A stretch of DNA of 64,000 nt, taken from positions 32,001 through 96,000 of IMG/VR virus record IMGVR_UViG_3300033073_000160. The stretch is one strand, 5' to 3'. Position numbers and translations under genes: made by a program. This stretch comes from a virus. Lineage: Duplodnaviria; Caudoviricetes. This document shows positions 3 through 30,731 of this stretch, piece after piece. Within the stretch, counting starts at the first letter, position 1; each line of letters starts with the position of its first letter. The notes below the pieces were generated by a model. The model made no database searches, had not been told where the DNA came from, and was given only the letters and a program-made list of their open reading frames with translations.

Positions 3-566
3 CAGATGATGGATAATGGTTTTATTACTGGTAGCAATGGCAAACAAGCCGACTGCCGTAACTTGATCCTTATTCTTACTACTAATGCTGGCGCACAATC
101 TGCTGAAAAGAATGCTATTGGCTTTGGGTCACAAGAAAAAGCCTACAGTGACGCAGATTTGAAAAAGTTCCTAACACCTGAATTCCGTAATCGTTTAGAT
201 GGCATCATTACCTTTAACAAGCTGGGCAAGCCAACTATGACTAAGATTGTTAATAAATTCTTAGACGAACTACGTGAACAAGTTAAAGAAAAAGCCATTC
301 GTATCAAAGCTGACAAAGATGCAATCGAATGGCTGATTGAAAAAGGATTTGATAGCAAGATGGGCGCTCGCCCACTACAACGTGTTATCGACAAGGAAAT
401 TAAGCGTGATCTTGCTAAGATGATGCTGTTCGGGGACTTGAAGCAAGGGGGCTGGCTAACTATTAGCGTAGTCGACGACAAGCTGGTGTTGGTTGCAAAG
501 CCAAAGACTCCAAAGGTTCCGCTATTAGTTTCAGAAGTAAAAGAAAATGCTAGTCAAGAAGACTAA
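3..566 (+). CDS. ClpA/ClpB-family AAA+ chaperone, C-terminal part (5'-truncated by the window)
   Basis: QMMDNG..TG..G..ADCRN.ILILTTNAG, IGFG loop, PEFRNRLD, MGARPLQRVI motifs of the Clp D2 domain; frame is open to the window edge. Confidence 0.9.
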   Translation, partial: QMMDNGFITGSNGKQADCRNLILILTTNAGAQSAEKNAIGFGSQEKAYSDADLKKFLTPEFRNRLDGIITFNKLGKPTMTKIVNKFLDELREQVKEKAIRIKADKDAIEWLIEKGFDSKMGARPLQRVIDKEIKRDLAKMMLFGDLKQGGWLTISVVDDKLVLVAKPKTPKVPLLVSEVKENASQED

Positions 567-1190: not shown

Positions 1191-1198
1191 GATAAATA
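1191..1198 (+). promoter_or_regulatory. putative phage late-type promoter (GATAAATA)
   Basis: Intergenic TAAATA core resembling the T4 late promoter TATAAATA; the motif recurs before other genes in the window. Confidence 0.55.
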
Positions 1199-1240: not shown

Positions 1241-1585
1241 ATGCGTATCACAGAATTAGTAGAAAATATAGATTTAGAGCTAGATAAAAAAGACGGATTA
1301 GACTTCGATCTAGTTGACGATCTATTCTTTTATATGAATCACGACGATGACACTTATCGTCGCCACACGTATCCAAGCATTGTAAAATATAAAAAAGCAA
1401 GAACTAACGGTGACGATACTGATCATTTATTGTTTGGATCAGCTGTTACAAACGCATACAAGAAATACTGCGAAGAATTTAAAGAAAAGCGATTACCTGA
1501 AAAGTTACCGCGTGATGTTTTAAATAAAATTTGCCATAAGCTTCATACTGAAGAAGGCAACAATATAGACGACGGTGCTTATTAA
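1241..1585 (+). CDS. hypothetical protein with MRITELVE N-terminus (putative head-internal protein)
   Basis: ATG at 1241 preferred over TTG at 1217; N-terminus shared with neighbouring ORFs. Confidence 0.7.
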   Translation: MRITELVENIDLELDKKDGLDFDLVDDLFFYMNHDDDTYRRHTYPSIVKYKKARTNGDDTDHLLFGSAVTNAYKKYCEEFKEKRLPEKLPRDVLNKICHKLHTEEGNNIDDGAY

Positions 1586-2811
1586 TGCGTTTAAGAGAAC
1601 TTTTTTCCTTAATGGAAGCTAAGAAGGATGCAGGCAATGATGTCGGCATGGAAAAATACGGCCGTCCATTTAATCACCCAGAACATTTAGTCTTCTTTAA
1701 AGGCTCAGAGGGAACACTTGAAGCATTAAACCACTTTAAAGAAATTGCTGCTGAAAAAGCAGGCTCTACTAGCATCCGTCGTAAATGGGACGGCAATCCC
1801 CAAGTATACTGGGGTAGAGAAACAAAAGGTGGTCCACTAATCTTAGCAGGACACAATCAATGGAGCAGAGGTGTTAAAGCAACTAGCGCTGAACAAGTAT
1901 ACGACTTTATTGCAAATCAAAGTGGCAAACCTCCTAAGAACGTTGATGAGCAACGAGCTCGTCAAGCGTTTGCACAAAACTTTTCTAACCTATATCCACT
2001 ATTTGATGCAGCTACGCCTAAAGACTTTGTAGGCTACGTCTATGCAGATAGTTTATACGGTGTTGATCCTAGCCTAAACAAAAAGTTAGGTGGTGCTAGT
2101 AAAGAATATCCTAAGGGCATATGGACGTTTTGTCCTAACCCTAATAGTAATACTTGTTATCACGTAGATGCAGCAAGTGAACTAGGTCAAAGAATTGCAC
2201 AGGCTAAAGTTATGGTCGTCGGTCATGCAACCTTTGATACGTTTGGTGCACCAGATAGAGAACAACAACCCCTTGACGACTTCGAAATGTTTAATCAAAC
2301 TCCTGGTTTGATTGTTCAAGGTCCAATCTATACAGATGAAGCCCCTGGCATAGATTTAACACCAGTTGACGAAATGATAAAATATGTCAATCAACACGGT
2401 GCTGCTATAGATGGATTTATGAGTAGTTTACCTGATCCTGATAAGAATGGTATTTTTTATCCATTCTTTAATAGCATGAGTGGTTCACACGCAAGAGGCG
2501 AAGCAGACTTTAATGCAATCTCAGGACATACATTTATGGACTGGATGACAAAGAAAGGTGTTAGTCCAAAGAAACAACAACATATTGTTGATATGATTCA
2601 GCAATACCCCGGCGGGTTAGATGCTATATTCTTTTTAATTAAAGGTATACGCAACATGAAGGATCAACTTGATGCTGCAATTAAACAGCAACCACGTAAG
2701 GAAATTTGGGATACTAACGGAGAAGGACACGTTCGTTATCCGCAGGCTCATCACAAATTTGGTGCAATGAAATTTGTTCCAACTACTTGGGCACCAGGAA
2801 GAAAAGAATGA
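1585..2811 (+). CDS. KxDG-motif ligase/nucleotidyltransferase-like protein
   Basis: HPEHLVF and RKWDGNP motifs (motif I KxDG of ATP-dependent ligases); N-terminus MRLRELF. Confidence 0.55.
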   Translation: MRLRELFSLMEAKKDAGNDVGMEKYGRPFNHPEHLVFFKGSEGTLEALNHFKEIAAEKAGSTSIRRKWDGNPQVYWGRETKGGPLILAGHNQWSRGVKATSAEQVYDFIANQSGKPPKNVDEQRARQAFAQNFSNLYPLFDAATPKDFVGYVYADSLYGVDPSLNKKLGGASKEYPKGIWTFCPNPNSNTCYHVDAASELGQRIAQAKVMVVGHATFDTFGAPDREQQPLDDFEMFNQTPGLIVQGPIYTDEAPGIDLTPVDEMIKYVNQHGAAIDGFMSSLPDPDKNGIFYPFFNSMSGSHARGEADFNAISGHTFMDWMTKKGVSPKKQQHIVDMIQQYPGGLDAIFFLIKGIRNMKDQLDAAIKQQPRKEIWDTNGEGHVRYPQAHHKFGAMKFVPTTWAPGRKE

Positions 2812-4793
2812 AATTAAGACAATTATTCAACACTAGACAAAACGAATCAGTTGCATCGGCTGCAATCGGCGGTGCAATTGGAAGAGAAGTCGGTAAAGAA
2901 GCTGGTAAAGAAGCCGGGAAGGTTGCAGGTAAAGTTGCAGGTAAAGAAGCCGGCACAATGTCAAAGACAGTATCTAGGGCAAAAACTATAGCAGGGGCAG
3001 ATACTCTTAGTAAAGAAAAAGAAAAAAATAGCACATCGATTGGTGTCTGCTTTGGTCGTTGGAATCCTCCCCACAAAGGGCATCGTGCTGCTTGGGAAAT
3101 TGCAGCAAGGAATGATACATTCTATGTTGGCACTAATAAGAATACAGAAGGCCCGAATGATCCGTTACCTTATGATGTAAAACTAAGTTGCATGGAAACA
3201 ATTTGGCCTGAGATTAAAGGGCACGTTGTTCCCGAACAAAGTTTGTTTACCCTAGCATCTAAAGTATATGCTAAACACGGCGAAGACGTTCATTTAAAAG
3301 TAGCAACAGACGAAGATTGGTTAACTAGCTCTCTTGTTAAGTATAACGGTGTAGCAGGTGCGCACGGCTTCTACAAGTTTGCTAGTATTGAGCAAGTTCC
3401 AACACCTCGACTAAGTAGTGCAACACAACTACGTGCGGCAGTTCGTGCAGGTGACAGAGATGCGTTTGCAGAAGCAGCAGGTGTTGATGCAAACACACCA
3501 ATTCGTGTTGGTGCAAAAGCAGTTCCGTTCTTTGATCTAGTTGCACACTATCTTGCTAAACATCCTGAAAAAGTTAAGAAGGTTAAGAAAGTAGACGAAG
3601 TAACTCCGGTGCAACCTGCCTCAGTTCCTGTTCCAGCACTACCAGCTGACCAAAGGCCTTATCAAGGAAGCTGGGCTAAGGTAGTGCCTAATAAAGATAT
3701 CGGGTTTGATGTTGTAGACTTTGACGGGAATGTTTCGTTAAAAGGTGCAAAATTAGCTGATGCAAATGCTGAAGCAAAGATTGTTGATAAAGAAATCGGT
3801 AAAGTTGCAATAGAACTAGGGTCATCGATTCGAGTAGATGAACATAAGAAAGGTGTTCGTGCAATGAAATATACTAAGAAGCCAGTTAATCCTTCTGCAC
3901 AACATCAAAAAGCAAAGGAAAAGTTTCAGCCGATTAAGCCAGGTGTTGAAAAGCAAACTGACGAATGTGCAGGCGTTGGAACTATTACAAAACAAAATTC
4001 AACTGCCGATGTAAACAAAGGCACGCCTTATAAGAATCTAAAAGCCTTTAATTTAGTTAAGGAAGGTCGTGCAAATACAAAGGCAGTTAGAACAGGATTG
4101 TCAAAGCGTGAAAAGAAAGCAGATCCAACTATGGATGCAAAGAAACAATCGGAGCAGGATGCCGCTTGGGAACGTTTACAAGCACACATGAATAAGCCAG
4201 AAAATATGGATGTGTTGAAACGTCTAGCAACTAAAGAAGGCATTTTCGATAGTAAACCTAAAGTAGACTTCAAATCTCGTGCTAAAGAGTTGTTTGCTAA
4301 AGGATTAACAGAACAACAAGTATTACAGCAATTAATCAAAGAAGGTTGCCCGCCAAATCAAGCGGCTGTATTTGTGCAAGGAGCACAATTAGAAGAATCC
4401 TCACTAGACACTTATATGGCAGAAAGAGCAGCGTATCTTGCAGAAACTGGCATGAAAAAGATTGACAAAGCTGCTAAAGGCGCTATGAAAAATGCGTCGA
4501 CGTTACCAGCATTGAACCAATCAACTGGTAGTGCTTATATGAATTATCGCATGAGTATTGCACTAGCAGGTGCTCCCGATTATCCTACAAAGATGGAAGC
4601 AGACAACTGGATCGGCGGTGACCCATTATTGTCTACATATACTGAAGAAGAGTTTGAAATGATTAAAAAAGCAGCGCAACAAGTTGGCGCTGGCACTATT
4701 CAAAACTGGTCAGGTAAGCGTAGTCAAGAAATGGCAGATGTTAATAAGACCAGTGCGGTTGCAAAGATTAAACGTAACAAATACGGTGTGTAA
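2808..4793 (+). CDS. cytidylyltransferase-like (HxGH) nucleotidyltransferase with a long modular C-terminal extension
   Basis: FGRWNPPHKGH, NDPLPYDVK and SSATQLR motifs; ATG at 2808 overlaps the upstream stop (ATGA). Confidence 0.75.
   Translation: MKLRQLFNTRQNESVASAAIGGAIGREVGKEAGKEAGKVAGKVAGKEAGTMSKTVSRAKTIAGADTLSKEKEKNSTSIGVCFGRWNPPHKGHRAAWEIAARNDTFYVGTNKNTEGPNDPLPYDVKLSCMETIWPEIKGHVVPEQSLFTLASKVYAKHGEDVHLKVATDEDWLTSSLVKYNGVAGAHGFYKFASIEQVPTPRLSSATQLRAAVRAGDRDAFAEAAGVDANTPIRVGAKAVPFFDLVAHYLAKHPEKVKKVKKVDEVTPVQPASVPVPALPADQRPYQGSWAKVVPNKDIGFDVVDFDGNVSLKGAKLADANAEAKIVDKEIGKVAIELGSSIRVDEHKKGVRAMKYTKKPVNPSAQHQKAKEKFQPIKPGVEKQTDECAGVGTITKQNSTADVNKGTPYKNLKAFNLVKEGRANTKAVRTGLSKREKKADPTMDAKKQSEQDAAWERLQAHMNKPENMDVLKRLATKEGIFDSKPKVDFKSRAKELFAKGLTEQQVLQQLIKEGCPPNQAAVFVQGAQLEESSLDTYMAERAAYLAETGMKKIDKAAKGAMKNASTLPALNQSTGSAYMNYRMSIALAGAPDYPTKMEADNWIGGDPLLSTYTEEEFEMIKKAAQQVGAGTIQNWSGKRSQEMADVNKTSAVAKIKRNKYGV
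2885..2955 (+). repeat. degenerate 12-bp coding tandem repeat (GKEA/GKVA)
   Basis: ggtaaagaagct/ggtaaagaagcc/ggtaaagttgca units. Confidence 0.7.
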
Positions 4794-5080
4794 TGAAACA
4801 GTATAGGATCACAACACAGGATTTGATACAAGATAGCGACGATGATTGCTACTTGGCGCCAGACGATCCTATCCATGAGATGAAAGCATTAGCTGGATTA
4901 GGTGGACTAGGTGGACAAGCAAGACTGCACGAATACCGTGCAAGTTTAGGTAGCAATATTAGTGTTACAGGCAATGAGAACGGACGTATACAACGAGAGC
5001 AAAATATTAAACCCGGAACTCCAGAATGGTTTCAACTATGGTTTAGTTTGCCTTACATGACTGGAGAAAAGAAAACATGA
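4793..5080 (+). CDS. hypothetical protein
   Basis: 95 aa, coupled by TAATG/ATGA overlaps; HEMKALAGL and IKPGTPEWFQLWF motifs. Confidence 0.7.
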   Translation: MKQYRITTQDLIQDSDDDCYLAPDDPIHEMKALAGLGGLGGQARLHEYRASLGSNISVTGNENGRIQREQNIKPGTPEWFQLWFSLPYMTGEKKT

Positions 5081-5667
5081 AAATCAATGAATTAGTTGAA
5101 GGTATTTTAGACGAAGTTAGTTTAAAAGGCTTTGGCACTTATGCTAAAAAAGCGCAGATGGATAGAGCTCTATCGCAAATGGGATCAGCATTTGCTGCCA
5201 GCCCTGAAGAGCGCGAAAAGAATCAAGCTAGGGCTGCAAGACGTGAGAAAGGGCTTGCTAGGCATAAAACTCGTGTTGACAAATACTGGGCTGAGAAAAA
5301 CGCAAGAGATGCTGCCGAGCGCGAGCAAGCAATTCGCGATAAGTTTGCAGGTGTAGATATCGATGACGAAATTGCAAAATTGAAGCCTGCACAGCAACGT
5401 GCATATCACGATTATCAATACGGTGCTAGAAACACTTATAGTCAAGCACACGATGAATATAACCGTATTAGTGCTAAAATCCAAGAACTAGAACGTGCTA
5501 AAAAAGTGCTAGGTGGGCTAGATGAAGAAGCAACAGCGGGCGGAACTAGCGCAGGCATGATGAGTATAGGTGCTGTGCATAAAAATCAAAGCCCTAAAAT
5601 GCAAAAACCAACAGATAACGCTTTAGACGGTGATAATTTGATGACCGGCGGAAGCATAAAACGCTAA
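5077..5667 (+). CDS. hypothetical protein with MKINELVE N-terminus (putative head-internal protein)
   Basis: 196 aa; shared N-terminal motif; LVE/LDE sites. Confidence 0.7.
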   Translation: MKINELVEGILDEVSLKGFGTYAKKAQMDRALSQMGSAFAASPEEREKNQARAARREKGLARHKTRVDKYWAEKNARDAAEREQAIRDKFAGVDIDDEIAKLKPAQQRAYHDYQYGARNTYSQAHDEYNRISAKIQELERAKKVLGGLDEEATAGGTSAGMMSIGAVHKNQSPKMQKPTDNALDGDNLMTGGSIKR

Positions 5668-5670
5668 ATA
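5663..5670 (+). promoter_or_regulatory. putative late-type promoter (GCTAAATA)
   Basis: TAAATA core about 25 nt before the ATG at 5692, followed by a GGAG Shine-Dalgarno. Confidence 0.45.
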
Positions 5671-5691
5671 TACTAATAACGGAGTTTAACC

Positions 5692-6846
5692 ATGCAAGAC
5701 ATGCAACCAGACAATTCAGCAATGCCAGTCGACAACGAAGGCGCTATGGCCAAGGCTGACCTATATAAATTAGCTAACTATAGTTTCAAACTGTTTAAAC
5801 AGATCGACGGCAACGCTCAACTTGAAGGTTGGGTCCAGGCTAAGATTACAAAAGCTGCCGATTACATCGCTAGCGTATACCACTACATGGAATACGAAAT
5901 GAAGTTTACTGAATACGGTGAACAACTTGAAAATAGCGAAATGTATTCAGAGAGTGAAAAAGCCGTATTAGCTTCTAAACTAATGGAAGCTAAAGAAAAG
6001 GTTAAAGAGCTTAAGAAAAAGACTGCTGATAAATTAGCTAAAAAAGACATGCCAGTTAAAGAAGAAAAATCTTCAACAGGTGGTGAAATTGATCGTTCAA
6101 AGAAAGGTGTAACAAGACACACCCATAATCCTGATCGTTTTAGCGACGAACCTCACGGCGAACCAGCAAGCAAGGCTAAGTCTCAATCTGCTGCTGAAAA
6201 AGCCAAAGACAAAGCTGCTGATAAAGCTGAAGAAAAAGAAGGTAAGAATTGGGAAAAGCGTTTTGGTAAAGGTTCTGTAACTCGTGTTAAAGATGGTAAG
6301 AAAGTAGACGAAGCGTTAGACCCCGTAGGTAAAGAAGACGACGACGTTAACAACGATGGTAAGAAAGATAAATCTGACGCTTATCTAAAGAAGCGCCGTG
6401 CCGCTGTCAGTAAGGCTGTTGGTAAGAAAGGCAAGCTAGAAGAAGCCGACAAAGGTGACATGGATAACGATGGCAAGGATGAACCAGATTCAAAAGAATA
6501 CATGGACAATAAAGATGCTGCTATCAAAAAGTCTGTTGCTGACAAAAAGAAAAAAGTTAAAGAAGCAGTTACTAAAGCAAAGGCCAAAATGGAAGGTTCT
6601 ATTCAAGGCGGTGTTTGGGTAAGTAGCCCAGATAAAGGTGTTGCGCCACCAAAGAACGATGACCAGGGAACTTTGAAAAAAGTTACACCTAAGAAACCAG
6701 CAACTGGCACACCTCCATACGTTCCATCAAAAAAATCAGGGACTAAGAAAGCCGAAACTGAAACTGATACAGCAGTTGCAGAAAGTTTAAAAGAATCAGC
6801 TGACTTAGGTCGTATGAAGCAATTCTTAGGTCGTCTCTTAGGATAA
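5692..6846 (+). CDS. highly charged Lys/Asp/Glu-rich protein, putative head-internal/scaffold-like
   Basis: 384 aa; many VKE/VDE/LEE sites; two DxNNDG/DMDNDG motifs. Confidence 0.7.
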   Translation: MQDMQPDNSAMPVDNEGAMAKADLYKLANYSFKLFKQIDGNAQLEGWVQAKITKAADYIASVYHYMEYEMKFTEYGEQLENSEMYSESEKAVLASKLMEAKEKVKELKKKTADKLAKKDMPVKEEKSSTGGEIDRSKKGVTRHTHNPDRFSDEPHGEPASKAKSQSAAEKAKDKAADKAEEKEGKNWEKRFGKGSVTRVKDGKKVDEALDPVGKEDDDVNNDGKKDKSDAYLKKRRAAVSKAVGKKGKLEEADKGDMDNDGKDEPDSKEYMDNKDAAIKKSVADKKKKVKEAVTKAKAKMEGSIQGGVWVSSPDKGVAPPKNDDQGTLKKVTPKKPATGTPPYVPSKKSGTKKAETETDTAVAESLKESADLGRMKQFLGRLLG

Positions 6847-6852
6847 TCTAAA

Positions 6853-7500
6853 ATGGACATGAAGAAAATTCTACAGGCCTTAGACGGTGCTTCGACAAAG
6901 CCCGTAGAAGGTTCTGCTGACATGTCTAAATTTCTTTCTATTGTTTCCGGGACCAACACTTCAATCTTACAAGAAGGAAAGGGCCCGGGCAATACGCTAA
7001 CTACTGCTGAGACTATGGTGTATATGAATACGCCAAAAGTTGAACCTGTTACACTTAAAGAAGGTCCAAGTATTAGATCATACTTACAATTAGTTGAAGC
7101 AGAACAAGTTTCTAAAGAAGACGAACTAAGAGCTAACTTAGAAGAATTATTAAACGAAGTTAAAGAAGAACCTCCAAAGCCACGTAACTTTGTAGCCAAA
7201 CATGCTAAGACAGGCGGTGCTGGCGCACACAAAGATAAAAAGAAAGCTGAAAAGCAAGGCGATGTAAAGCACAAGAAGCAATCAATTCCCATGGATGAAA
7301 GTGAACTTGCAGAACGTTCTGTAAGCCAAGCACAAGCACATATTATGGCTGCGGCAGCACACAATCCAGAATTTGCTAAAAAAGTAAAAATTAAACCATC
7401 TGTTGCTAAAGAATTTAATCGTGCCGATAAAGGTAAGAATATTAAGAGTTTGCCACAGCGTGTAGTTAAAAAAGAAACATATGACGAAGGCGATGAGTAA
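6853..7500 (+). CDS. hypothetical protein (MDMKKILQALD N-terminus)
   Basis: 215 aa; LQE/LKE/LNE/LAE sites separating short basic modules. Confidence 0.7.
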   Translation: MDMKKILQALDGASTKPVEGSADMSKFLSIVSGTNTSILQEGKGPGNTLTTAETMVYMNTPKVEPVTLKEGPSIRSYLQLVEAEQVSKEDELRANLEELLNEVKEEPPKPRNFVAKHAKTGGAGAHKDKKKAEKQGDVKHKKQSIPMDESELAERSVSQAQAHIMAAAAHNPEFAKKVKIKPSVAKEFNRADKGKNIKSLPQRVVKKETYDEGDE

Positions 7501-7940
7501 TGGACGAACTAAAACAAGCACTTAAAGTAACACACGCTTCTACTATAGCCTTTTACATGAAAGCACACAACTTTCATTTTAACGTAGAAGGTCCTAACTT
7601 TCCTCAATATCACACATTATTTCAAACCATATACGACGAAGTATACGGTAGTGTAGACCAGTTTGGAGAAGAAATCCGTGCGTTAGGTTCTTACACTCCA
7701 ATGAGCCCTGCACGTATTGCAGAGCTTTCAATTTTAGACGAACCTCAAATTCCAATGCCTGCACAAGAAATGCTACAAGCACTTGGACAAGATAATCAGG
7801 CATTATTAGAAGTATTAAAACGTGTATTTGAAATTGCAAATTCAAATAACGAACAAGGTCTTGCAGACTTTATTGCAGGACGTTTAGATGCACATAAAAA
7901 ACATGCATGGATGCTCCGTGCAACTAGTAAACCAGGATAA
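7500..7940 (+). CDS. dps: Dps/ferritin-like DNA protection protein
   Basis: HNFHFNVEG..F..YH..F..IYDE...VD..GE.IR ferroxidase pattern and HKKHAWML C-terminus. Confidence 0.9.
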   Translation: MDELKQALKVTHASTIAFYMKAHNFHFNVEGPNFPQYHTLFQTIYDEVYGSVDQFGEEIRALGSYTPMSPARIAELSILDEPQIPMPAQEMLQALGQDNQALLEVLKRVFEIANSNNEQGLADFIAGRLDAHKKHAWMLRATSKPG

Positions 7941-7943
7941 GAC

Positions 7944-9824
7944 ATGGACTTCAGAAATATACTATCAAAACTTTCTTTATTAGAAGCAATTACAATAGAT
8001 GACGTAAGAGCAGCTATTGGTCAAGAGCAAGACGAACAAAAACGTGCTGCCATCTTAAATGACTTAGCATGGAAAAATAACTTACCAGGTCTTTACGATC
8101 CGGTTAGCGGATATTTTGTGGCAAAACAAAGTCAGCCTACTCCCGGCGAAGGTCGTTATAGTATTGCTGCTACTGCTCGAGAAGCTGACACCCAAGCACT
8201 TGCTAAGATGGGCCTAGTTCCACAAACTGCTAAAACTAGTGCATTAGGCGGATTAGTAGGAACAGGTAGTTTATTTGGTAGCAGCGCAGATAATGCCAAA
8301 GCTGCTCAAGCTGTTAAAGATACAAGTAATAAATTTAATGCAGATGCTACTAGCTCAAAAGTTAACGGTGCAAATGTTAGAAAATTAAACGACTTAGTTG
8401 CTAAACTTACAGGAAAGCCAACCGCTGGGGATAAGATTGCTGCTGATGCCGCAGCATACGATGCTGCCAAAGCAGGAACAGTTCAGCAAGGCGCACAAAA
8501 AGTTCAGCAAGGCGCACAAGCTGCACCCGGTGCAAAATTACCTGCTGATGCAAGAGGTTGGGACTCACAAGTTAAAGAATCATTACACGCTCAGTTGTCT
8601 AATTTACTAAACGAAGAGTTTGGCATTGAGGAGAGAGTTGTCGGCGGGGAAGAAACTCCACCGGGGATTAATCGTTTAACAGGTAAACCTATTGAGCCGC
8701 AAGCTGCGCCATCTGCGCCTGCTGATACACCGGCAGTTGTTCCATTGAGCAAGCGCTTTGATCCTAGATTTAAAAATGGTCCAGAGCCATATACAATCGA
8801 CATCGACGGAACTGTATACAAGTTTGCAGGACGAGACAAGTCTGCACCAGGTGGCGGTGAAGTTATTAAAGTTCCAGCGGCAGTCATTGGAATTCGCGGT
8901 TTAGGTGCAGTTAGCGTAGAGTTAGGCAAAGATGGTTTATACTATGCAGCACCGCAACAAGAATCATTAGCTGAAACAATGGGGTCATTACGTGACTTGT
9001 TAGCAGAGTTAAATGAAGGTCCTGTTGCTAGAGCAACCGGTCGCGAAGTTGCTAAGAAAGGCGCCGAAGTAGCTGCTAAAAACATTGATGACGTAATTGA
9101 CGTTGAAGCAAAATGGATTACAGATCCATCAATGAAAGAAAAACTAAAACAATGGATGGCTGCTAATCCAGGCAAGACTGTTGCTGCTGGTGTAAGCGCA
9201 TTAGGTTTAGCAACTGCGGCCGGTTTAGATGCAAGCGGACGTAAAACTGGAGCCACAGATCCGCGTGTTGCAGGTAATACTCCAGCCGGTGCAACACCTC
9301 CGGCAGCTGGTGCAACACCTCCAGCACAAGGGGCGCAAGCTGCTGATACAGGTGCTGCTACTTCAAGAGGTGCAGCAACAGGTTCGGCTCCGGCTGCAAC
9401 TGGTGGTGCCGATGGCCCAACTGGACAGGCATTAGCTAAGTTAGGCGTTACAAAACAAAATAGACTTGATCAGGCATTTGTTGATAAAGCACTTGGTGCA
9501 GGAAAATACAAAGCAGGAACTGCTCAATCAAACTTAGCACTTCTAGCCCATTTTAAAGCAACCGGTGGTAATAAGCCAGATGCAGCTAAACCAGATGCTG
9601 CGCCAGCTCAAGCCGCTCAGGCAGCACCAACGGGCCCAACACCAGAACAGGCTGAACTAATTAAACAGATTCAAGCTGTAATGATGGACTTGCAAGGTAA
9701 TGACGATGATCCAGTTATTGCCAAAGCATTAAGCGATGCTCAGGCAGCTATTGATAGCGTAGGAAAAGCTCCAGCGGCAGCGGCAGCGCCTGCGGCAGCG
9801 CCTGCGGCAGCACCAGCGCCATAA
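7944..9824 (+). CDS. Ala/Gly/Pro-rich modular protein (MDFRNILSKL N-terminus)
   Basis: 626 aa; low-complexity linkers, LLE/VKE/LNE sites, APAAA tail. Confidence 0.75.
   Translation: MDFRNILSKLSLLEAITIDDVRAAIGQEQDEQKRAAILNDLAWKNNLPGLYDPVSGYFVAKQSQPTPGEGRYSIAATAREADTQALAKMGLVPQTAKTSALGGLVGTGSLFGSSADNAKAAQAVKDTSNKFNADATSSKVNGANVRKLNDLVAKLTGKPTAGDKIAADAAAYDAAKAGTVQQGAQKVQQGAQAAPGAKLPADARGWDSQVKESLHAQLSNLLNEEFGIEERVVGGEETPPGINRLTGKPIEPQAAPSAPADTPAVVPLSKRFDPRFKNGPEPYTIDIDGTVYKFAGRDKSAPGGGEVIKVPAAVIGIRGLGAVSVELGKDGLYYAAPQQESLAETMGSLRDLLAELNEGPVARATGREVAKKGAEVAAKNIDDVIDVEAKWITDPSMKEKLKQWMAANPGKTVAAGVSALGLATAAGLDASGRKTGATDPRVAGNTPAGATPPAAGATPPAQGAQAADTGAATSRGAATGSAPAATGGADGPTGQALAKLGVTKQNRLDQAFVDKALGAGKYKAGTAQSNLALLAHFKATGGNKPDAAKPDAAPAQAAQAAPTGPTPEQAELIKQIQAVMMDLQGNDDDPVIAKALSDAQAAIDSVGKAPAAAAAPAAAPAAAPAP
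8480..8519 (+). repeat. 21-bp-period coding tandem duplication (VQQGAQ x2)
   Basis: agttcagcaaggcgcacaa at 8480 and 8501. Confidence 0.85.
9768..9821 (+). repeat. GC-rich coding repeat (APAAA)n
   Basis: gcggcagcgcct units. Confidence 0.8.
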
Positions 9825-9840
9825 TTAGTTACACTCTAAG

Positions 9841-9867
9841 AATGGCAGATTTATTCTGCCATTTTTT
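9841..9867 (+). terminator. intrinsic terminator
   Basis: aatggcaga-tttat-tctgccatt 9-bp stem followed by a T run, just after the 7944 gene. Confidence 0.85.
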
Positions 9868-9887
9868 ACGACTTTTTATTCTTGGGC

Positions 9888-9916
9888 TTGCTTTTGCAAG
9901 ATAATTAGTATATAAT
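9888..9916 (+). promoter_or_regulatory. sigma70-type promoter
   Basis: TTGCTT-17 bp-TATAAT, then AGGAG SD. Confidence 0.7.
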
Positions 9917-9937
9917 GTTACATCAAAGGAGATACTA

Positions 9938-10195
9938 ATGTCTGGACGTAGTTACGGAGCCGAAGAAAAGGCAAAATTAGAAAGATTAATTAGCGAAGGT
10001 TCTACTGTATTGAGAGAAGTAGAAGACTTGCAAGAAGGGTTAAAAGAAACTGTTAAGGCAGTTGCAGAAGAGCTTCAAATTAAACCAAGCGTTATTAACA
10101 AAGCAATTAAGATTGCCCACAAAGGCGATTGGGCTGCTTACAACGAAGATTGGGAAGAGATTGAAGCTATCTTAGATATTACTAAACGCATATAA
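9938..10195 (+). CDS. small dsDNA-binding protein (T4 DsbA/GapR-like)
   Basis: 85-aa helical protein with an LKE..K.VAEEL.IKPSVINKAIKIAHK pattern; recognised by eye only. Confidence 0.5.
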   Translation: MSGRSYGAEEKAKLERLISEGSTVLREVEDLQEGLKETVKAVAEELQIKPSVINKAIKIAHKGDWAAYNEDWEEIEAILDITKRI

Positions 10196-10491
10196 TGATT
10201 GACACTATCTTTGGGCCAACTATACAATGGATAAAAGATGATTGGGCATCTAACCGTTTACGTTTTATTATTGAGCTCCTTGCTTGGGCTATCTCAATTG
10301 GATGTAGCATCACAATGGCGGTCACGGTTCCCAATCCTCCACTCCTTGCTCTATATCCTATTTGGATCACTGGTTGTGCTATGTATGCTTGGGCTGCTTG
10401 GACTCGTAAATCTTTTGGCATGCTCGCTAATTACATTCTGCTCACCACAATTGATAGTGTTGGGCTGGTAAGGATGCTAAATAATTTATAA
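10195..10491 (+). CDS. small membrane protein (about 3 transmembrane helices)
   Basis: Three hydrophobic segments in 98 aa. Confidence 0.7.
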   Translation: MIDTIFGPTIQWIKDDWASNRLRFIIELLAWAISIGCSITMAVTVPNPPLLALYPIWITGCAMYAWAAWTRKSFGMLANYILLTTIDSVGLVRMLNNL

Positions 10492-10500
10492 GAAAGGTAA

Positions 10501-10545
10501 GCGGGCCATAAACCGCAATGTGGTATTTGCAAGCCATAAATTGCA
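10501..10545 (+). promoter_or_regulatory. tandem RNA hairpins with identical GCCAUAAA loops, putative translational operator of the DNA polymerase gene
   Basis: gcgg-gccataaa-ccgc (10501-10516) and tgcaa-gccataaa-ttgca (10528-10545), directly before AGGAG and the TTG start. Confidence 0.7.
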
Positions 10546-10557
10546 TAGGAGAAAAAT

Positions 10558-13224
10558 TTGAGTTACGTTGACGCATGGTTCAACCGCGATGACGATGTCA
10601 TCAAGATTGTTGAACGCAATAAAAAAGGTGAACGTGAATACAGGGACATCCCCGTAAAGCACACGTTTTACTACAAAGACCCAAAGGGCAAACACCAATC
10701 AATTTACGGAGATCCACTTAGCAGGATTGTCTGTAAAAACACAAAAGAACTACGCAAAGAACAAGCTATCAATTCAGGTAAGCAATTATTTGAAGCTGAT
10801 ATCAATCCGATCTTTGTTTGCTTGTCAGAAAACTATCTTAATCAAGATGCACCAAAACTCAATGTAGCGTTTTGGGATATTGAGGTGGACTTTGATCCAG
10901 AACGTGGCTACGCATCGCCGGATGATGCGTTCATGCCAATTACTGCGATTGCTGTTCACCTACAATGGTTAGACACCCTAGTTTGTTTGGCAGTTCCGCC
11001 AAAAACTATGACTATGGACCAAGCTAAAGAAGCTGTTGCAGAATTTCCTAATACATATTTGTTTGAAAAAGAATCGGACATGTTAGACATGTTCTTAGAT
11101 TTGATTCAAGATGCAGATATCTTAAGTGGTTGGAACAGCGAAGGCTTTGATATGCCGTATACTGTCAACCGCATTACAAAATCACTAAGCAAAGAAGATA
11201 CACGTAGACTATGCTTGTTTGACCAATTTCCTAAGAAACGTGAATACGAAAAGTTTGGTCGCGAGTCAGTTACATACGATCTAGTAGGTCGTGTCCATTT
11301 AGATAGTTTAGAGTTGTATCGCAAATACACATACGAAGAACGACATAGCTATCGACTAGACGCTATTGCAGAATACGAACTAAACGAACGTAAGACGCCA
11401 TACGAAGGATCGCTAGATCAACTATACAATCATGATTTTAAAAAGTTTATTGAATATAACAGACAAGATACTGCGCTGTTGGATAAACTAGATAAAAAGC
11501 TAAAGTTTATTGACCTTGCTAATACGCTGGCACACGAATGCACAGTATTGCTACAAACTACAATGGGCGCTGTTGCCGTTACTGAGCAAGCTATTATTAA
11601 CGAAGCGCATCGTAGAGGATTTCAAGTTCCCAACAGAACTAAAATGGACGATCGAGAAAGCAGCCAGGCGGCAGGTGCTTATGTTGCTTACCCTAAAGAA
11701 GGCATTCACGACTGGATTGGTTCGTTAGATATTAACAGTCTTTATCCGTCAGCTATTCGTGCCCTTAACATGGGGCCAGAAACTATTATTGGTCAGCTAC
11801 GGCCTTCAATGACTGAAGAATACATTCAAGGACAAATGGCTAAAGGCAAATCATTTGCGGCAGCATGGGAAGGTATATTTGGCTCATTAGAGTATACTGC
11901 TGTTATGAATCAAGAAATTGGAACAGAAATTACCATTGACTGGGAAGACGGTTCTAGTGATATGTTGAGTGCCGCAGAAGTATACAGGTTAATCTTTGAA
12001 AGTAATCAGCCGTGGGTAATCAGTGCTAATGGCACTATCTTTACATATGAAAAAGAAGGTATTATTCCCGGATTGCTAAAGCGTTGGTATGCAGAACGTA
12101 AAGAAATGCAGGCCAAACTCAAAGACGCTATTAAAGCAGGTAATAAGATTGAAGAAGAATACTGGGACAAGCGTCAATTGGTTAAGAAGATTAACCTAAA
12201 TAGTTTGTATGGTGCTATTCTTAACCCTGGATGCAGATTCTTTGATAATAGGATCGGACAATCAACTACGCTAACCGGTCGTCAGATTGCAAAGCATATG
12301 GCTGGAAAGGTCAATGAGATCATCACCGGAGAGTTTAATCACGTAGGTAAAGCTATTATTTACGGTGATACTGACTCTTGTTATTTTAGTGCATACAAAA
12401 CATTGCAGAAAGAAATTGATAGCGGGCAATTACCCTGGACTAAAGAAAGTGTTGTTCAACTCTATGACCAGATTGGAGAAGAAGTAAATCAAACTTTCCC
12501 ACAGTTTATGTTAGATGCTTTCCACTGTCCAAAGAGTCGCGGCGAAGTTATCAAAGCAGGACGTGAAATCGTTGGCTCAAAAGCATTGTTCATTACTAAG
12601 AAGCGTTATGCTGTTCTTTACTATGATAAAGAAGGCAAGCGTAGTGACGTAGATGGCAAGCCAGGTAAGATCAAAGCCATGGGTCTTGACCTAAAGCGTA
12701 GTGATACGCCTGAGTTTATCCAAAACTTCTTAAGTGATGTTCTTGAAATGGTGTTAACTGGTAAGACTGAAGAAGAAGTCCTTGATCATATTAGCGAGTT
12801 TAGACTAAAGTTTAAGAGTAGACCGGGTTGGGAGAAAGGTTCCCCGAAACGTGCTAATAAGATTACTGAATACGAAGCTAAAGAAAAGAAAGCAGGTAAG
12901 GCAAATATGCCCGGACATGTTCGTGCTAGCATTAATTGGAATACATTAAAGCGAATGATGAACGACAAATACTCAATGAGTGTTACTGATGGCGCTAAAG
13001 TTATTGTTTGCAAACTTAAACCTAATCCTATCGGGTTTACGTCAGTTGCATATCCGGTAGACGAATTGCGATTGCCGCAATGGTTTAAAGATCTTCCGTT
13101 TGACCATGCAGAAATGGAGCAAACTATTATCGACAACAAGTTAGATAACTTGATCGGTGTATTGAAGTGGGACGTTACTAGCACAGAGGAGAAGAACACT
13201 TTTAATAGCTTGTTCGAGTTCTAA
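10558..13224 (+). CDS. family B DNA polymerase with 3'-5' exonuclease
   Basis: DIEVD, GWNSEGFD, YNRQD (exonuclease); DINSLYPS, KINLNSLYG, YGDTDS, KKRY (polymerase); TTG start with AGGAG SD. Confidence 0.97.
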   Translation: MSYVDAWFNRDDDVIKIVERNKKGEREYRDIPVKHTFYYKDPKGKHQSIYGDPLSRIVCKNTKELRKEQAINSGKQLFEADINPIFVCLSENYLNQDAPKLNVAFWDIEVDFDPERGYASPDDAFMPITAIAVHLQWLDTLVCLAVPPKTMTMDQAKEAVAEFPNTYLFEKESDMLDMFLDLIQDADILSGWNSEGFDMPYTVNRITKSLSKEDTRRLCLFDQFPKKREYEKFGRESVTYDLVGRVHLDSLELYRKYTYEERHSYRLDAIAEYELNERKTPYEGSLDQLYNHDFKKFIEYNRQDTALLDKLDKKLKFIDLANTLAHECTVLLQTTMGAVAVTEQAIINEAHRRGFQVPNRTKMDDRESSQAAGAYVAYPKEGIHDWIGSLDINSLYPSAIRALNMGPETIIGQLRPSMTEEYIQGQMAKGKSFAAAWEGIFGSLEYTAVMNQEIGTEITIDWEDGSSDMLSAAEVYRLIFESNQPWVISANGTIFTYEKEGIIPGLLKRWYAERKEMQAKLKDAIKAGNKIEEEYWDKRQLVKKINLNSLYGAILNPGCRFFDNRIGQSTTLTGRQIAKHMAGKVNEIITGEFNHVGKAIIYGDTDSCYFSAYKTLQKEIDSGQLPWTKESVVQLYDQIGEEVNQTFPQFMLDAFHCPKSRGEVIKAGREIVGSKALFITKKRYAVLYYDKEGKRSDVDGKPGKIKAMGLDLKRSDTPEFIQNFLSDVLEMVLTGKTEEEVLDHISEFRLKFKSRPGWEKGSPKRANKITEYEAKEKKAGKANMPGHVRASINWNTLKRMMNDKYSMSVTDGAKVIVCKLKPNPIGFTSVAYPVDELRLPQWFKDLPFDHAEMEQTIIDNKLDNLIGVLKWDVTSTEEKNTFNSLFEF

Positions 13225-13225
13225 T

Positions 13226-13999
13226 ATGAAAATTATAATCGCAGGGTATGGATTTGTTGGCAAGGCAATTGCCAACGCCCTAAAACCAACACACGATGTA
13301 GTTATTGTAGATCCACAATATACTACAAACGAAATTAAGTATCATCACGATGCAGATGGGTTAATTATATGCGTTAACACTCCTACAGGTGAAAACGGTA
13401 TCATCGATGCTAATAATGTAGCCAATGTGTTAGATAATGTGCCGGTGTTCATGCCGGTGCTGATCAAAAGCACAGTAACTCCGGCAATCATAGATGCATT
13501 TGATGAAATATATCCCGACCTAGCTATTACGTATAGTCCAGAATTCTTACGTGCTAGAACAGCCAATGAAGATTTTTTAAACCAAAAATATGTTGTGCTA
13601 GGCGGAGAAGATCCGGAATGCTTCTGGCAAGAGCTATTCCAATCAACACTACCTAATTGTAAACTAGTTTTAAATTGCACAGCCAAAGAATCCGCTATGG
13701 TAAAGTATACTATAAACTCATTCCTTGCTCTTAAGACAAGTTTCTTTAATCAAATAGCAGACATTTGTGATAACAACGGTTTAGACTATGACATTGTTAG
13801 ACACATTGTTAGCAACGATACACGTATCGGTGCTAGCCACACTATGGTCCCAGGACCAGATGGTGAAAGAGGATGGGGAGGTGCTTGTTTCCCAAAAGAC
13901 ACAGAAGCATTTACACAATGGGCTAGAACTGTTGAACACCCTGTCACTATTTTAGAAGAAGCGATAAATTATAATCGCCGAATTAGAAAAAATGCTTGA
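13226..13999 (+). CDS. UDP-glucose/GDP-mannose dehydrogenase family protein (short form)
   Basis: GYGFVG Rossmann motif, CVNTP, IKSTV, SPEFLR, KY..NSFLA.K, GGACFPKD. Confidence 0.9.
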   Translation: MKIIIAGYGFVGKAIANALKPTHDVVIVDPQYTTNEIKYHHDADGLIICVNTPTGENGIIDANNVANVLDNVPVFMPVLIKSTVTPAIIDAFDEIYPDLAITYSPEFLRARTANEDFLNQKYVVLGGEDPECFWQELFQSTLPNCKLVLNCTAKESAMVKYTINSFLALKTSFFNQIADICDNNGLDYDIVRHIVSNDTRIGASHTMVPGPDGERGWGGACFPKDTEAFTQWARTVEHPVTILEEAINYNRRIRKNA

Positions 14000-25794: not shown

Positions 25795-26635
25795 AATCGC
25801 AGAATTATTTTATTCAATCCAAGGTGAGGGGCGCTATATGGGTGTCCCTTCGGTGTTTCTGCGCACATTTGGCTGTAACTTTAAGTGTGCCGGCTTTGGT
25901 ATGCCTAAAGGAGAGTTAAGTAATGAAATTGAACCTATTGCACAACGTATTGCAGAATTTAAAAGTTATGAAGAGCTTCCGCTTGTTAGCACAGGTTGTG
26001 ATAGTTACGCTAGTTGGGATCCTCGTTTTAAAGATCTCAGCCCGATGCTTACAAGCGATGGCATTGCAGAACGTATCTGCGAAATCCTTCCGTTCAACGA
26101 GTGGCAAGATGAGCACTTGGTAATCACAGGCGGTGAGCCATTACTTGGTTGGCAACGTGCTTATCCGGACTTGCTCAATCATCCTAAGATGAAGAACTTA
26201 AAAGAGATTACGTTTGAAACTAATGGCACTCAAAAGCTAACTCCAGAATTTAAAGAATTTTTAATTGAGTGGCAAATGCCGCATGTAGATTTTACGCCCG
26301 AAGTTACGTTTAGCGTCAGTGCTAAACTAAGTTGTAGCGGAGAAGCAAGACACGAAGCAATTCGTCCAGACATTGTATGTGAATATGAGGAGGTTGGCTA
26401 CACTTACCTTAAGTTTGTAGTAGCAACAGAAGAAGATGCAGAAGAAGCAATTGAAACAGCAGACATTTACAGAGCCGAAGGGTTTACAGGACCCGTTTAT
26501 CTTATGCCAGTTGGTGGGGTGGAGTCTGTTTATACTCTTAATAATCGCAGGGTCGCTGAACTAGCAATGAAAAATGGCTTACGCTATTCAGATCGTTTGC
26601 AAGTTCCATTATTTAAAAATGAGTGGGGAACATAA
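25781..26635 (+). CDS. queE: 7-carboxy-7-deazaguanine synthase (radical SAM)
   Basis: ELFYSIQGEG, FLRTFGCNFKC...GCDS, ITGGEP, ETNGT, R.SDRLQV.L. Confidence 0.92.
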   Translation: MSKIKIAELFYSIQGEGRYMGVPSVFLRTFGCNFKCAGFGMPKGELSNEIEPIAQRIAEFKSYEELPLVSTGCDSYASWDPRFKDLSPMLTSDGIAERICEILPFNEWQDEHLVITGGEPLLGWQRAYPDLLNHPKMKNLKEITFETNGTQKLTPEFKEFLIEWQMPHVDFTPEVTFSVSAKLSCSGEARHEAIRPDIVCEYEEVGYTYLKFVVATEEDAEEAIETADIYRAEGFTGPVYLMPVGGVESVYTLNNRRVAELAMKNGLRYSDRLQVPLFKNEWGT

Positions 26636-27090: not shown

Positions 27091-28106
27091 CATATATTCT
27101 AGTTGATACAGCTAATACGTTCTTTCGTGCTAGACATGTAGTTCAAGGTGCTGCCGATATTAAACTTGGCATGGCGTTTCATATTACATTTAATAGCATT
27201 AAGAAAGCGTGGAACGACTTTGAAGGCAAACATGTTGTGTTCTGCCTCGAAGGTCGTTCGTGGCGTAAAGACTTTTATAAACCTTATAAAGCTAATCGTG
27301 CTGAAAGCCGTGCGGCTATGACTGTTAAAGAACAAGAAGAAGATAAATTGTTCTGGGAAGCATTTGATGAGTTTAAAAAGTTCATTAGTGAAAAAACTAA
27401 TGTAACAGTCTTGCATCATCCGCAACTCGAAGCTGATGATTTGATTGCGGGCTTTATTCAAATGCATCCAAATTCACAGCATGTAATTGTTAGCACAGAC
27501 AGCGACTTTCACCAATTACTAGCATCAAACGTAAAACAATATAACGGTGTTGCCGACGAGACTCATACTATTAACGGCATCTTTGATAAAAAGGGTAAGC
27601 TAGTTAAAGATAAGAAAACAGGCGAACCAAAAGTTGTTCCAGATCCAGAATGGATTCTGTTTGAAAAGTGTATGCGAGGTGATAGTAGTGATAACGTGTT
27701 TAGTGCATACCCCGGCGTTAGAACTAAAGGCACAAAAAATAAAGTTGGGCTCACTGAAGCGTTTGAAGATCGTAAAAGCAAAGGCTTCTCTTGGAACAAT
27801 CTCATGCTTCAGCGTTGGACAGATCACAACGGCGAAGAGCATCGCGTTCTAGAAGACTACAATCGTAATGTCACTTTAGTAGACTTATCAGCACAACCTG
27901 CAGAAATTAAGCAAATTATTCGTGAAACTATAGATAGCGCAGCCGTTCCTAAAGATGTAACACAAGTAGGCATTCGTATGCTTAAATTCTGTAATACATG
28001 GGACATGAAAAAGATTGCTGATAACATTCAGCAATACGCAGAACCGTTCCAATCTAAATACCCAGAGACAGATGTTACATGGCGAAAACTTACACAGGAA
28101 ATTTAA
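27087..28106 (+). CDS. 5'-3' exonuclease / T4-type RNase H (FEN superfamily)
   Basis: LVDTAN, WRK..Y..YKANR, EADDLI, STDSDFHQL, GDSSDNV. Confidence 0.9.
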   Translation: MTYILVDTANTFFRARHVVQGAADIKLGMAFHITFNSIKKAWNDFEGKHVVFCLEGRSWRKDFYKPYKANRAESRAAMTVKEQEEDKLFWEAFDEFKKFISEKTNVTVLHHPQLEADDLIAGFIQMHPNSQHVIVSTDSDFHQLLASNVKQYNGVADETHTINGIFDKKGKLVKDKKTGEPKVVPDPEWILFEKCMRGDSSDNVFSAYPGVRTKGTKNKVGLTEAFEDRKSKGFSWNNLMLQRWTDHNGEEHRVLEDYNRNVTLVDLSAQPAEIKQIIRETIDSAAVPKDVTQVGIRMLKFCNTWDMKKIADNIQQYAEPFQSKYPETDVTWRKLTQEI

Positions 28107-29139: not shown

Positions 29140-29546
29140 TAGCCCGAGATACATTGACTAAAATATTTTTAGCACAATGGGGTAAGGGCACAGATGATAC
29201 TAACGTAAAGTTATACTCGCGGACTTGGTGGCAGTCAACGAGGGTAGGTAAACAAAATGCCTATCGATTAAGCGAAGCAGGATTTGAATTCTTAACTACA
29301 GAATTAGATCTTAAATGCTACGAAATTCCATTTACAGAACAAATTGAATTGAGTCCTCAAACTATTGTGTTTTTGGAAAGATACGTAGACTGCCCATATT
29401 TTTTAACTAGCCAAAGTATCACAGTATTCTCCGAACGAAAGAGCTTTGAGCTAATGTTGTTTTCAGACGACATTCGCCGATTTGGGCTAGTTAAAGCGAT
29501 GACTGAACGCCAAAAAGAAATGGATAAGCTAGCCCAAAACTCCTAA
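29136..29546 (+). CDS. hypothetical protein
   Basis: 136 aa, RLSEAG wing-like motif. Confidence 0.7.
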   Translation: MIARDTLTKIFLAQWGKGTDDTNVKLYSRTWWQSTRVGKQNAYRLSEAGFEFLTTELDLKCYEIPFTEQIELSPQTIVFLERYVDCPYFLTSQSITVFSERKSFELMLFSDDIRRFGLVKAMTERQKEMDKLAQNS

Positions 29547-29554
29547 AAAAGTTG

Positions 29555-29583
29555 TTGACTGCGGTAGCAAAGATGTGTATAAT
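29555..29583 (+). promoter_or_regulatory. sigma70-type (early) promoter
   Basis: TTGACT-17 bp-TATAAT with an upstream A tract. Confidence 0.85.
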
Positions 29584-29626
29584 AGACACATAGACAGCAA
29601 TTTTTAACTTTTTACACGGAGTATAT

Positions 29627-30715
29627 ATGAGTGAAGTTATTTCCCGCACAGTAGGCCCTAAGGGCGCCAAAAAAAGTCTGCGCAAGGCTTTTAAAAATAA
29701 ACGCCCGGTGTTCCTGTGGGGGCCTCCCGGTATTGGTAAATCGGACATTATCAAGCAGTTGGGTGCAGAGCTTGACGCTCATGTAATTGACGTTCGTTTG
29801 TCTCTTTGGGAACCTACCGATATTAAAGGTATCCCGTATTTTGATAGCAATACAGGCAAAATGGTTTGGGCTCCTCCGCTTGAACTTCCTGATGCCGAGC
29901 TTGCATCCAAACATAAGCAAATTATCCTGTTCATGGATGAAATGAACTCTGCGGCACCTAGTGTGCAGGCGGCGGCTTATCAGTTGGTGCTGAATCGTCG
30001 TGTTGGCACATACGAGCTTCCAGACAATGTTGTAATGGTTGCCGCTGGTAACCGCGAAACTGACAAGGGTGTTACTTATCGTATGCCTGCTCCGTTGGCT
30101 AACCGTTTCGTTCACTTGGAAATGACAGTGGATTGGGATGACTACTTTGAGTGGGCTACTGAGCAGAAGATTCATAAGGACGTAGTTGGTTTCCTTACTT
30201 TCTCTAAGAAAGATCTATATGACTTTGATCCGAAGTCAAGCTCACGTGCATTTGCTACTCCTCGCTCTTGGTCGTTTGTTAGCGAGTTGCTTATTGACGA
30301 CGACACTGACACAGACACTCTTACTGACTTAGTTTCTGGTGCAATCGGTGAAGGTCTTGCTGTTAAGTTTATGGCTCACCGCAAAATTGCATCCAAAATG
30401 CCTAACCCAGAAGATATTCTGAGCGGCAAAGTTAAGAAGATGGATTCAAAAGAAATCTCTGCAATGTATTCTTTGACTGTTAGTCTGTGCTACGAACTCA
30501 AGGATTCAAACGATAAGAAGGCTAAGAACTGGAACGATCAAGTTAACAACTTCTTCGAGTTCATTATGAACAACTTTGAAACTGAGTTAGTTATTATGGG
30601 CACTAAATTGGCGTTGTCTAGCTACAAACTGCCGCTGGATCCAGACGAGATTGCTTGTTTTGATGACTTCCATGCAAAATATGGCAAGTATATTTCGGCT
30701 GCAACTGAAAAATAA
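29627..30715 (+). CDS. MoxR-like AAA+ ATPase
   Basis: Walker A GPPGIGKS, Walker B LFMDE, AAGNR, PLANRF, TPRSW. Confidence 0.9.
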   Translation: MSEVISRTVGPKGAKKSLRKAFKNKRPVFLWGPPGIGKSDIIKQLGAELDAHVIDVRLSLWEPTDIKGIPYFDSNTGKMVWAPPLELPDAELASKHKQIILFMDEMNSAAPSVQAAAYQLVLNRRVGTYELPDNVVMVAAGNRETDKGVTYRMPAPLANRFVHLEMTVDWDDYFEWATEQKIHKDVVGFLTFSKKDLYDFDPKSSSRAFATPRSWSFVSELLIDDDTDTDTLTDLVSGAIGEGLAVKFMAHRKIASKMPNPEDILSGKVKKMDSKEISAMYSLTVSLCYELKDSNDKKAKNWNDQVNNFFEFIMNNFETELVIMGTKLALSSYKLPLDPDEIACFDDFHAKYGKYISAATEK

Positions 30716-30731
30716 ATTGGTATAGCACCAT

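Follow-up and report, generated by a model that had tools for sequence, protein, structure and literature searches.

A stretch of 64,000 nucleotides (nt) of phage DNA (positions 32001-96000 of the 115.9-kb IMG/VR contig IMGVR_UViG_3300033073_000160, which is estimated to be 31% complete; hereafter, the window) carries, between window positions 1191 and 9824, a compact gene cluster that is likely, as judged by its sequence, to be a late-transcribed operon of capsid cargo, i.e., of internal or ejection proteins. Most of its open reading frames (ORFs), named here by the window position of their first nucleotide, begin with a short amphipathic leader peptide similar in form to the capsid-targeting sequence (CTS) of phage T4. 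The DNA comes from an uncultured jumbo myophage found in fresh water, a member of the T4 superfamily. Among family-B DNA polymerases, its own is closest to those of jumbo myophages (Phosso, 51%; Atu_ph07, 47%; Rak2/121Q-like phages, 44%). For comparison, 80 related IMG/VR loci were fetched. In all of these loci a ClpA-like gene, ORF 547, the cluster, a DsbA-like ORF and polB occur in the same order. In 25 loci (24 related loci and the window), the cluster is complete and its leader-bearing genes form the same series.

An initial annotation of the window had described six ORFs that start with one similar peptide, and the ORFs, N-terminal peptides and sites that it quoted were all found where it had placed them. 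The similarity itself holds for four of the six. ORFs 1241, 1585, 2808 and 5077 share a first type of leader, 8–11 residues long, with the pattern M-K/R-hydrophobic-x-E/Q-L-F/V...E, whereas ORFs 6853 and 7944 have a second, related type (MD..K/R..IL), in which they are similar to each other. Since the leader of these two ORFs differs from the first type, there are two or three leader types rather than one. The core pattern of the first type heads 6 of the 113 genes on the contig, against 0.17 expected from its internal frequency. Four of these six genes are the cluster members named above; the remaining two lie elsewhere, one being GH19-like and the other an ORF of 79 amino acids (aa) that follows the portal gene. 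A hydrophobic-x-Glu sequence ends the leader in ORFs 1241, 1585, 5077 and 7944 and in nearly all of their orthologues, and the earliest fitting site of this kind in ORF 6853 is at residue 41.

Comparison of orthologues (25–80 related loci) showed that identity is 71–74% over leader residues 2–9, but only 13–24% over residues 10–18. A single leader peptide is written in as many as 22 nucleotide versions, and in the orthologues of ORF 1585, a DUF6267 gene that mostly starts with GTG, the peptide is unchanged. Because the leader is kept through synonymous codons and two start codons, selection appears to act on the peptide and not on the RNA or DNA. ORF 1241 illustrates the pattern: its leader is almost invariant in 24 distinct orthologues, and the remainder of the protein is 35–50% identical. 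The proposal that the cluster is a shuffleable cassette was borne out by these conserved leaders, which precede variable and exchanged modules across the related loci.

In the T4 genome record (NC_000866), the N-termini of IPII, IPIII, IPI, Alt, gp24 and gp22 are short and amphipathic and end in hydrophobic-x-Glu. The leaders of the cluster match them in form, not in exact sequence, with those of Alt and gp24 being the nearest. The first 10 residues of IPIII are enough for capsid targeting, and the internal proteins of T-even phages are diverse, with the CTS alone being conserved (PMC9026906, PMC3012670). Mutagenesis of the T4 CTS has assigned residues 4 and 7 to targeting, and residues 8 and 10 to processing (PMC9026906). 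The contig carries a T4-like head module consisting of a portal gene, the 79-aa ORF, an acidic protein, a prohead protease and a gp22-like scaffold. The protease (contig 114941-115570) belongs to Peptidase S77 (PF03420, E = 2.6e-26; PHROG 207, E = 9e-58) and shares 34% identity with T4 gp21, to which its His and Ser motifs align. The 79-aa ORF, which bears the leader, lies directly after the portal gene, in the position of T4 gp67. A near copy of the leader stands at the start of the gp22-like scaffold of this lineage, a parallel to T4, in which gp22 resembles the CTS. In the major capsid protein of a related contig, L-M-E-Ser stands where T4 gp23 has L-T-E-Ala. Covariation between the leader and the N-terminus of the scaffold fits T4 and this lineage, but fails in the cyanophage S-CREM2, and was not used as evidence.

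The cluster is preceded by a late-type promoter box, GATAAATA, at 1191..1198 on the plus strand, 49 nt ahead of the first cluster gene. Its core, ATAAATA, occurs in 13 copies on both strands of the 116-kb contig, mostly as GATAAATA, and all 13 copies are ≤80 nt upstream of a gene in the sense orientation, mostly a tail, baseplate or head gene. Ahead of the orthologues of ORF 1241, the box is kept in 72 of 77 loci, at a distance of 46–54 nt. The canonical T4 late promoter, TATAAATA, was absent from the window, where 7.3 copies would be expected, and scanning for consensus terminators and sigma-70 promoters revealed no excess over shuffled sequences. The box, N-ATAAATA, is probably the late promoter of this lineage, to judge from its placement, and its position ahead of ORF 1241 would make the cluster a late operon.

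The same cassette, composed of a DUF6267-like protein with a KWDG motif, an HxGH nucleotidyltransferase and Lys-rich modular proteins, was found in the Kyanoviridae phages Syn19, Melnitz, S-CREM2 and S-SCSM1. Mass spectrometry has identified 52 proteins in S-CREM2 virions (PMC10665884). When the whole S-CREM2 genome was scanned in six frames for a CTS-like start, four ORFs were obtained (cytidylyltransferase, SAM hydrolase, kinase and ORF13), and 4/4 are virion proteins, whereas their non-virion neighbours do not have the motif. The five adjacent genes of S-SCSM1, ORFs 89–93, are all annotated as virion proteins (PMC9602691). Among these, ORF91 is an NMNAT-like homologue of ORF 2808 (same PHROGs, 3041 and 395), and part of ORF92 shares 68% identity with residues 204–243 of ORF 5692. 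The free-standing S-SCSM1 ORF93 (69 aa) is 78% identical to a module inside the 5692-family protein of one related locus (L045), where the module begins right after V-S-E. The initial annotation had taken the leader for a T4-type capsid-targeting and propeptide signal, and the likeness to T4, the S77 protease, the leader-bearing head-module ORF, the promoter and the cyanophage virion homologues together argue well, if indirectly, for that assignment.

Targeting, cleavage and delivery are the steps that we infer from these observations. The leader would act like the T4 CTS and attach the protein to the prohead's scaffolding core, after which the gp21-type (S77) protease would cut the leader off behind its terminal hydrophobic-x-Glu; the protease of T4 depends on the context of the prohead. 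The mature proteins would then remain in the head and exit with the DNA. The predicted cargo comprises the RNA-ligase-like DUF6267 protein, the NMNAT-like HxGH nucleotidyltransferase and several Lys-rich proteins made of small exchangeable modules; the Dps-like protein of the cluster may also be cargo. A function of the cargo in early RNA repair or in the supply of NAD is speculation.

The initial annotation had also proposed that four of the ORFs are precursors cut at internal hydrophobic-x-Glu sites into many small peptides. Sites matching [LIVM]xE[AGS] were counted and compared with the number expected from composition, and an excess was detected in ORF 5692 (6 vs 1.5) and ORF 6853 (4 vs 1.2). 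Over the 25 complete clusters, the number of sites per 100 aa is 1.25–1.43 in the 5692 and 6853 families and 0.32 in other genes, and the ratio of the forward to the reversed motif is 2.2–2.5 in these families and 0.87 in the rest. The enzymes and Dps do not exceed background. The sites at residues 99 and 368 of ORF 5692 are invariant in 22/22 relatives, and that at residue 41 of ORF 6853 is kept in 25/25. The DUF7230 module is flanked by hydrophobic-x-Glu on both sides, and its neighbours change between loci exactly there; in one related locus (L063), this module directly follows a leader of the ORF 5077 type. Cutting at the sites would yield, from ORFs 5692 and 6853, fragments that are for the most part small and basic, as the internal proteins of T4 are. 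The few invariant hydrophobic-x-Glu-small sites of the 5692 and 6853 families would probably be further cuts that free modules; such cuts are not indicated for ORFs 2808 and 7944.

Several observations weigh against the capsid-cargo interpretation or limit its reach. Compared with T4, the leaders differ among themselves, with at least two types, and are unlike the T4 CTS in sequence and length. No leader was found in ORF 4793, and none that is clear in the Dps ORF 7500. The first conserved Glu site of the second-type leader breaks the cleavage rule, having Pro at P3 (P-V-E-G, ORF 6853), and the leader of ORF 2808 in the window (2808-2846) has Asn where its orthologues have the terminal Glu. 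The S-CREM2 pattern was written after its hits had been seen; therefore, the fair claim is that no non-virion gene has the pattern. The authors of the cyanophage proteomes state that abundant proteins could co-purify with virions (PMC10665884, PMC9602691). With respect to the internal sites, their density is unremarkable in ORF 2808 (3 vs 2.2) and ORF 7944 (3 vs 1.6), two of the four ORFs for which processing had been proposed. Homology-block ends are only moderately enriched near sites: 22% lie ≤2 residues from one, compared with 12% of random positions, and for block starts the excess is close to nil. Some of the swaps among relatives fall exactly on sites, but several exchange points lie elsewhere. 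Since enrichment and invariance are confined to the 5692 and 6853 families and some swaps are off-site, internal processing is likely at a few sites in two families and lacks support in the others, and cutting into many small peptides is no more than plausible.

These last points favor the main open alternative, namely, that the proteins are packaged by means of the leader, lose the leader alone and otherwise stay whole, the internal motifs being ordinary features of helical or disordered sequence rich in Lys, Glu and Ala. Its support comes from the lack of a site excess in ORFs 2808 and 7944, from block starts that are almost unassociated with sites and from the many exchange points away from them; moreover, T4 internal proteins lose just their leader, and Alt is trimmed at its two ends only (PMC9026906). 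It does not readily account for the enrichment in the 5692 and 6853 families (where sites are 4 times as dense per residue as in other genes and 2.2 to 2.5 times as frequent as the reversed motif), for three sites that are invariant in 22–25 relatives amid poorly conserved sequence, for a DUF7230 module that is site-bounded on both sides or for a free-standing cyanophage virion protein that corresponds to an embedded module behind a site. We regard leader-only removal as a serious possibility, although somewhat short of probable.

Two other explanations deny the leader a role in capsid targeting. It could be a tag for a different machine, such as the ClpA-like unfoldase or DnaJ-like protein encoded upstream, or a modifying enzyme, and the ClpA-like gene, ORF 547 and the cluster are indeed adjacent in every related locus. 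However, the leader also occurs on the head-module ORF and mirrors the N-terminus of the scaffold, the promoter box parts the cluster from the ClpA gene, and the leader-bearing proteins of S-CREM2 are in virions. The idea of a ClpA tag is very unlikely, because no ClpA gene lies beside the homologous cassettes, with their CTS-like leaders, of Syn19, Melnitz, S-CREM2 and S-SCSM1. Alternatively, the cluster could consist of ordinary intracellular metabolic or DNA-binding genes, with N-termini that are similar through common descent of the gene starts or because they serve as a recombination handle in the exchange of cassettes, without a function in the protein itself. In T4-type phages, short conserved sequences at gene boundaries promote modular exchange, and this, together with the replication-type genes flanking the cluster (ClpA-like and polB), speaks for such an origin. 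We consider it highly improbable, since the peptide is kept through many synonymous changes and two start codons, which places selection on the protein, and since the promoter is of late type and homologues are found in virions.

The capsid-cargo interpretation can be set beside known systems. The T4 proteins IPI, IPII, IPIII and Alt likewise combine an amphipathic hydrophobic-x-Glu leader with unrelated, fast-changing cargo and a gp21-family protease encoded in the same genome, and, as with Alt, an enzyme is among the cargo. Unlike in T4, the genes here form one probable late operon of approximately 8.6 kb flanked by ClpA-like and polB genes, and the predicted cargo includes RNA-ligase-like and NMNAT-like enzymes as well as long proteins of several modules that contain candidate sites for internal cuts. 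The interpretation given in the initial annotation is thus partly supported, and the cluster would be a variant of the T4 CTS and internal-protein system. Multiple cleavage at Glu-ended sites by gp21 or a related prohead protease is also a feature of the T4 scaffold gp22, which gp21 reduces to peptides, and of head and inner-body proteins of the phiKZ-like giants (phiKZ, 201phi2-1 and SPN3US). These cleavages are documented by mass spectrometry, whereas the sites here are predicted and would part exchangeable modules instead of trimming propeptides. The phiKZ-like prohead proteases favor a different P3 residue. With the "non-structural" virion proteins of T4-like cyanophages, the cluster shares the nucleotidyltransferase, small modules (68–78% identity), CTS-like starts and a position, as a block, apart from the main structural region. 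The host and the phage family differ, the present phage being a jumbo phage, and several modules that are separate genes in cyanophages are joined here into longer proteins. The cyanophage papers describe the detection of these proteins but name no targeting signal. A Rak2-like cytidyltransferase, e.g., that of CBB, was rejected as a comparison for the cassette, being a bare 180-aa enzyme in a different context.

A broader generalization is attractive, but we put it forward tentatively, as slightly less likely to hold than to fail: a single portable grammar, consisting of a capsid-address leader and protease-cut joints, may extend through the whole T4 superfamily, from T4 via marine cyanophages to freshwater jumbo phages, and load an exchangeable head kit consisting of an RNA-ligase-like enzyme, an NMNAT-like enzyme and small, Lys-rich, DNA-associated peptides. 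Its modules would be traded between phage families (68–82% identity between this lineage and cyanophages) and would appear either as individual genes or within polyproteins that the head protease splits. If the capsid-cargo interpretation is correct, a T4-type capsid address would explain the NMNAT-like enzymes, kinases, SAM hydrolase and small proteins of cyanophage virions, for which several cyanophage papers left the reason open. Capsid targeting, experimentally established so far for T4, would hold for jumbo phages and for the abundant phages of aquatic habitats as well. The cargo available at time zero of infection would then comprise RNA-repair-type and NAD-related enzymes, which fits a role in counter-defense, and basic peptides. 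The combination of leader, S77 protease and late promoter would be a simple rule by which to predict, in metagenomes, which phage proteins are injected, and the leaders would be candidates for loading foreign proteins into phage heads.

All genes of the cluster lie on the plus strand. ORF 1241 (1241..1585) encodes a 114-aa acidic protein with no Pfam or PHROG match, in which the leader occupies codons 1–8 and ends in L-V-E. ORF 1585 (1585..2811) encodes a 408-aa protein assigned by Pfam to DUF6267, and its leader (codons 1–11) ends in L-M-E followed by Ala. The KxDG motif I, which holds the catalytic lysine in covalent nucleotidyltransferases (ATP-dependent RNA/DNA ligases and capping enzymes), is represented by K67-W-D-G70, which is invariant in 22 sequences, and KWDG is also present in the Syn19 and Melnitz homologues. 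An AlphaFold model had a pLDDT of 82.7, with residues 1–20 below 50, consistent with a floppy leader. Comparison of this fold with 48,161 chains gave RNA or DNA ligases as all of the 14 best matches, with RNA ligases leading. The matches were modest (Z 5.0–6.9; root-mean-square deviation 4.1–5.4 over 164–195 residues; best Foldseek E = 0.07), and a sequence-profile search of the PDB with DUF6267 yielded no meaningful match. The model thus gives modest support for ORF 1585 being a ligase-type nucleotidyltransferase with a fold nearest to RNA ligases. In a tblastn search of 50,697 phage records, ORF 1585 had no match, and ORF 6853 had one weak match, in 201phi2-1.

ORF 2808 (2808..4793) encodes a 661-aa nucleotidyltransferase with inserts that matches the phage cytidyltransferase families PHROG 3041 (E = 3e-14) and PHROG 395 (E = 2e-7), and it is homologous to the NMNAT-like virion proteins of cyanophages. 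The leader is followed by a Gly/Lys repeat, an HxGH/SxTxxR domain (residues ~75–264), inserted modules of ~270 aa and a conserved C-terminal domain (~548–661). The signature motifs are PHKGH (around residue 87) and SSATQLR (around residue 203); since the protein had no Pfam match at E = 0.01, it is regarded as a divergent HxGH nucleotidyltransferase. In most relatives the C-terminal domain is fused straight to the enzyme; where it is encoded apart, as an ORF of 124 aa, it has a leader of its own. Should the leader be a tag that is cleaved off, the window copy of this protein may be targeted yet remain untrimmed, comparable to a reported Asp-10 mutant of the T4 CTS. ORF 4793 (4793..5080) encodes a conserved 95-aa protein that carries no leader. 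ORF 5077 (5077..5667) encodes a 196-aa basic protein, whose leader (codons 1–8) ends in L-V-E followed by Gly and precedes a variable middle and a conserved C-terminal module.

ORF 5692 (5692..6846) encodes a 384-aa modular protein rich in Lys and Glu, in which an acidic, conserved 99-aa head domain is followed by small basic modules with hydrophobic-x-Glu-Ala/Ser sites between them. Within it, an 84-bp segment (6316-6399) is 82% identical at the DNA level to the marine cyanophages Syn19 and Syn2, which would reflect either exchange of the module between phage families or very strong constraint; the encoded module is rich in Asp and resembles a calcium loop. ORF 6853 (6853..7500) encodes a 215-aa modular protein with a 41-residue N-terminal piece that closes with an invariant I-L-Q-E followed by Gly, a DUF7230 module (~106–149) and a PHROG 16759 module (~156–204). 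The last 16 residues of ORF 5692 (6799-6846) resemble the leader of ORF 6853 and an internal repeat ~22 residues further on (6853-6950), so that three copies of one amphipathic unit span the boundary between the two genes. ORF 7500 (7500..7940) encodes a 146-aa Dps/ferritin-like protein (Pfam Ferritin PF00210, E = 1.8e-21; PHROG 3636). This gene precedes the last gene here, but follows the nucleotidyltransferase gene in many relatives; the order within the cluster is therefore not fixed. ORF 7944 (7944..9824) encodes a 626-aa protein rich in Ala, Gly and Pro, with a 14-residue second-type leader that ends in L-L-E followed by Ala. The leader type is kept in this family, in which protein length ranges from 278 to 1106 aa.

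Outside the cluster, the leader-bearing 79-aa ORF lies between the portal gene and the gene for the acidic core protein at contig 113756-113995 (positions 244-483 of related locus L001), and it was also found on the minus strand of locus L092 (8761-9000). A lysis cassette with a holin nearby contains two GH19-like genes (contig 25945-26577 and 27199-27954, corresponding to 1946-2578 and 3200-3955 of locus L097). The second has the cargo leader and the first does not, and the second may be a packaged copy beside an ordinary endolysin. Immediately upstream of the cluster are genes for a DnaJ-like protein (window 3-566) and a 756-aa ClpA-like ATPase (contig 29397-32566), an adjacency kept in all related loci. 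In S-CREM2 (OR473000), the genes for SAM hydrolase, kinase and ORF13, all with a T4-CTS-like start, lie within positions 3837-13331, and the "Cas9-like" ORF12 has a CTS-like peptide after ~20 residues, an indication that its true start lies further downstream. Finally, a lone ORF of 4908 aa is located amid tail and baseplate genes on the minus strand of the window (46471-61197).

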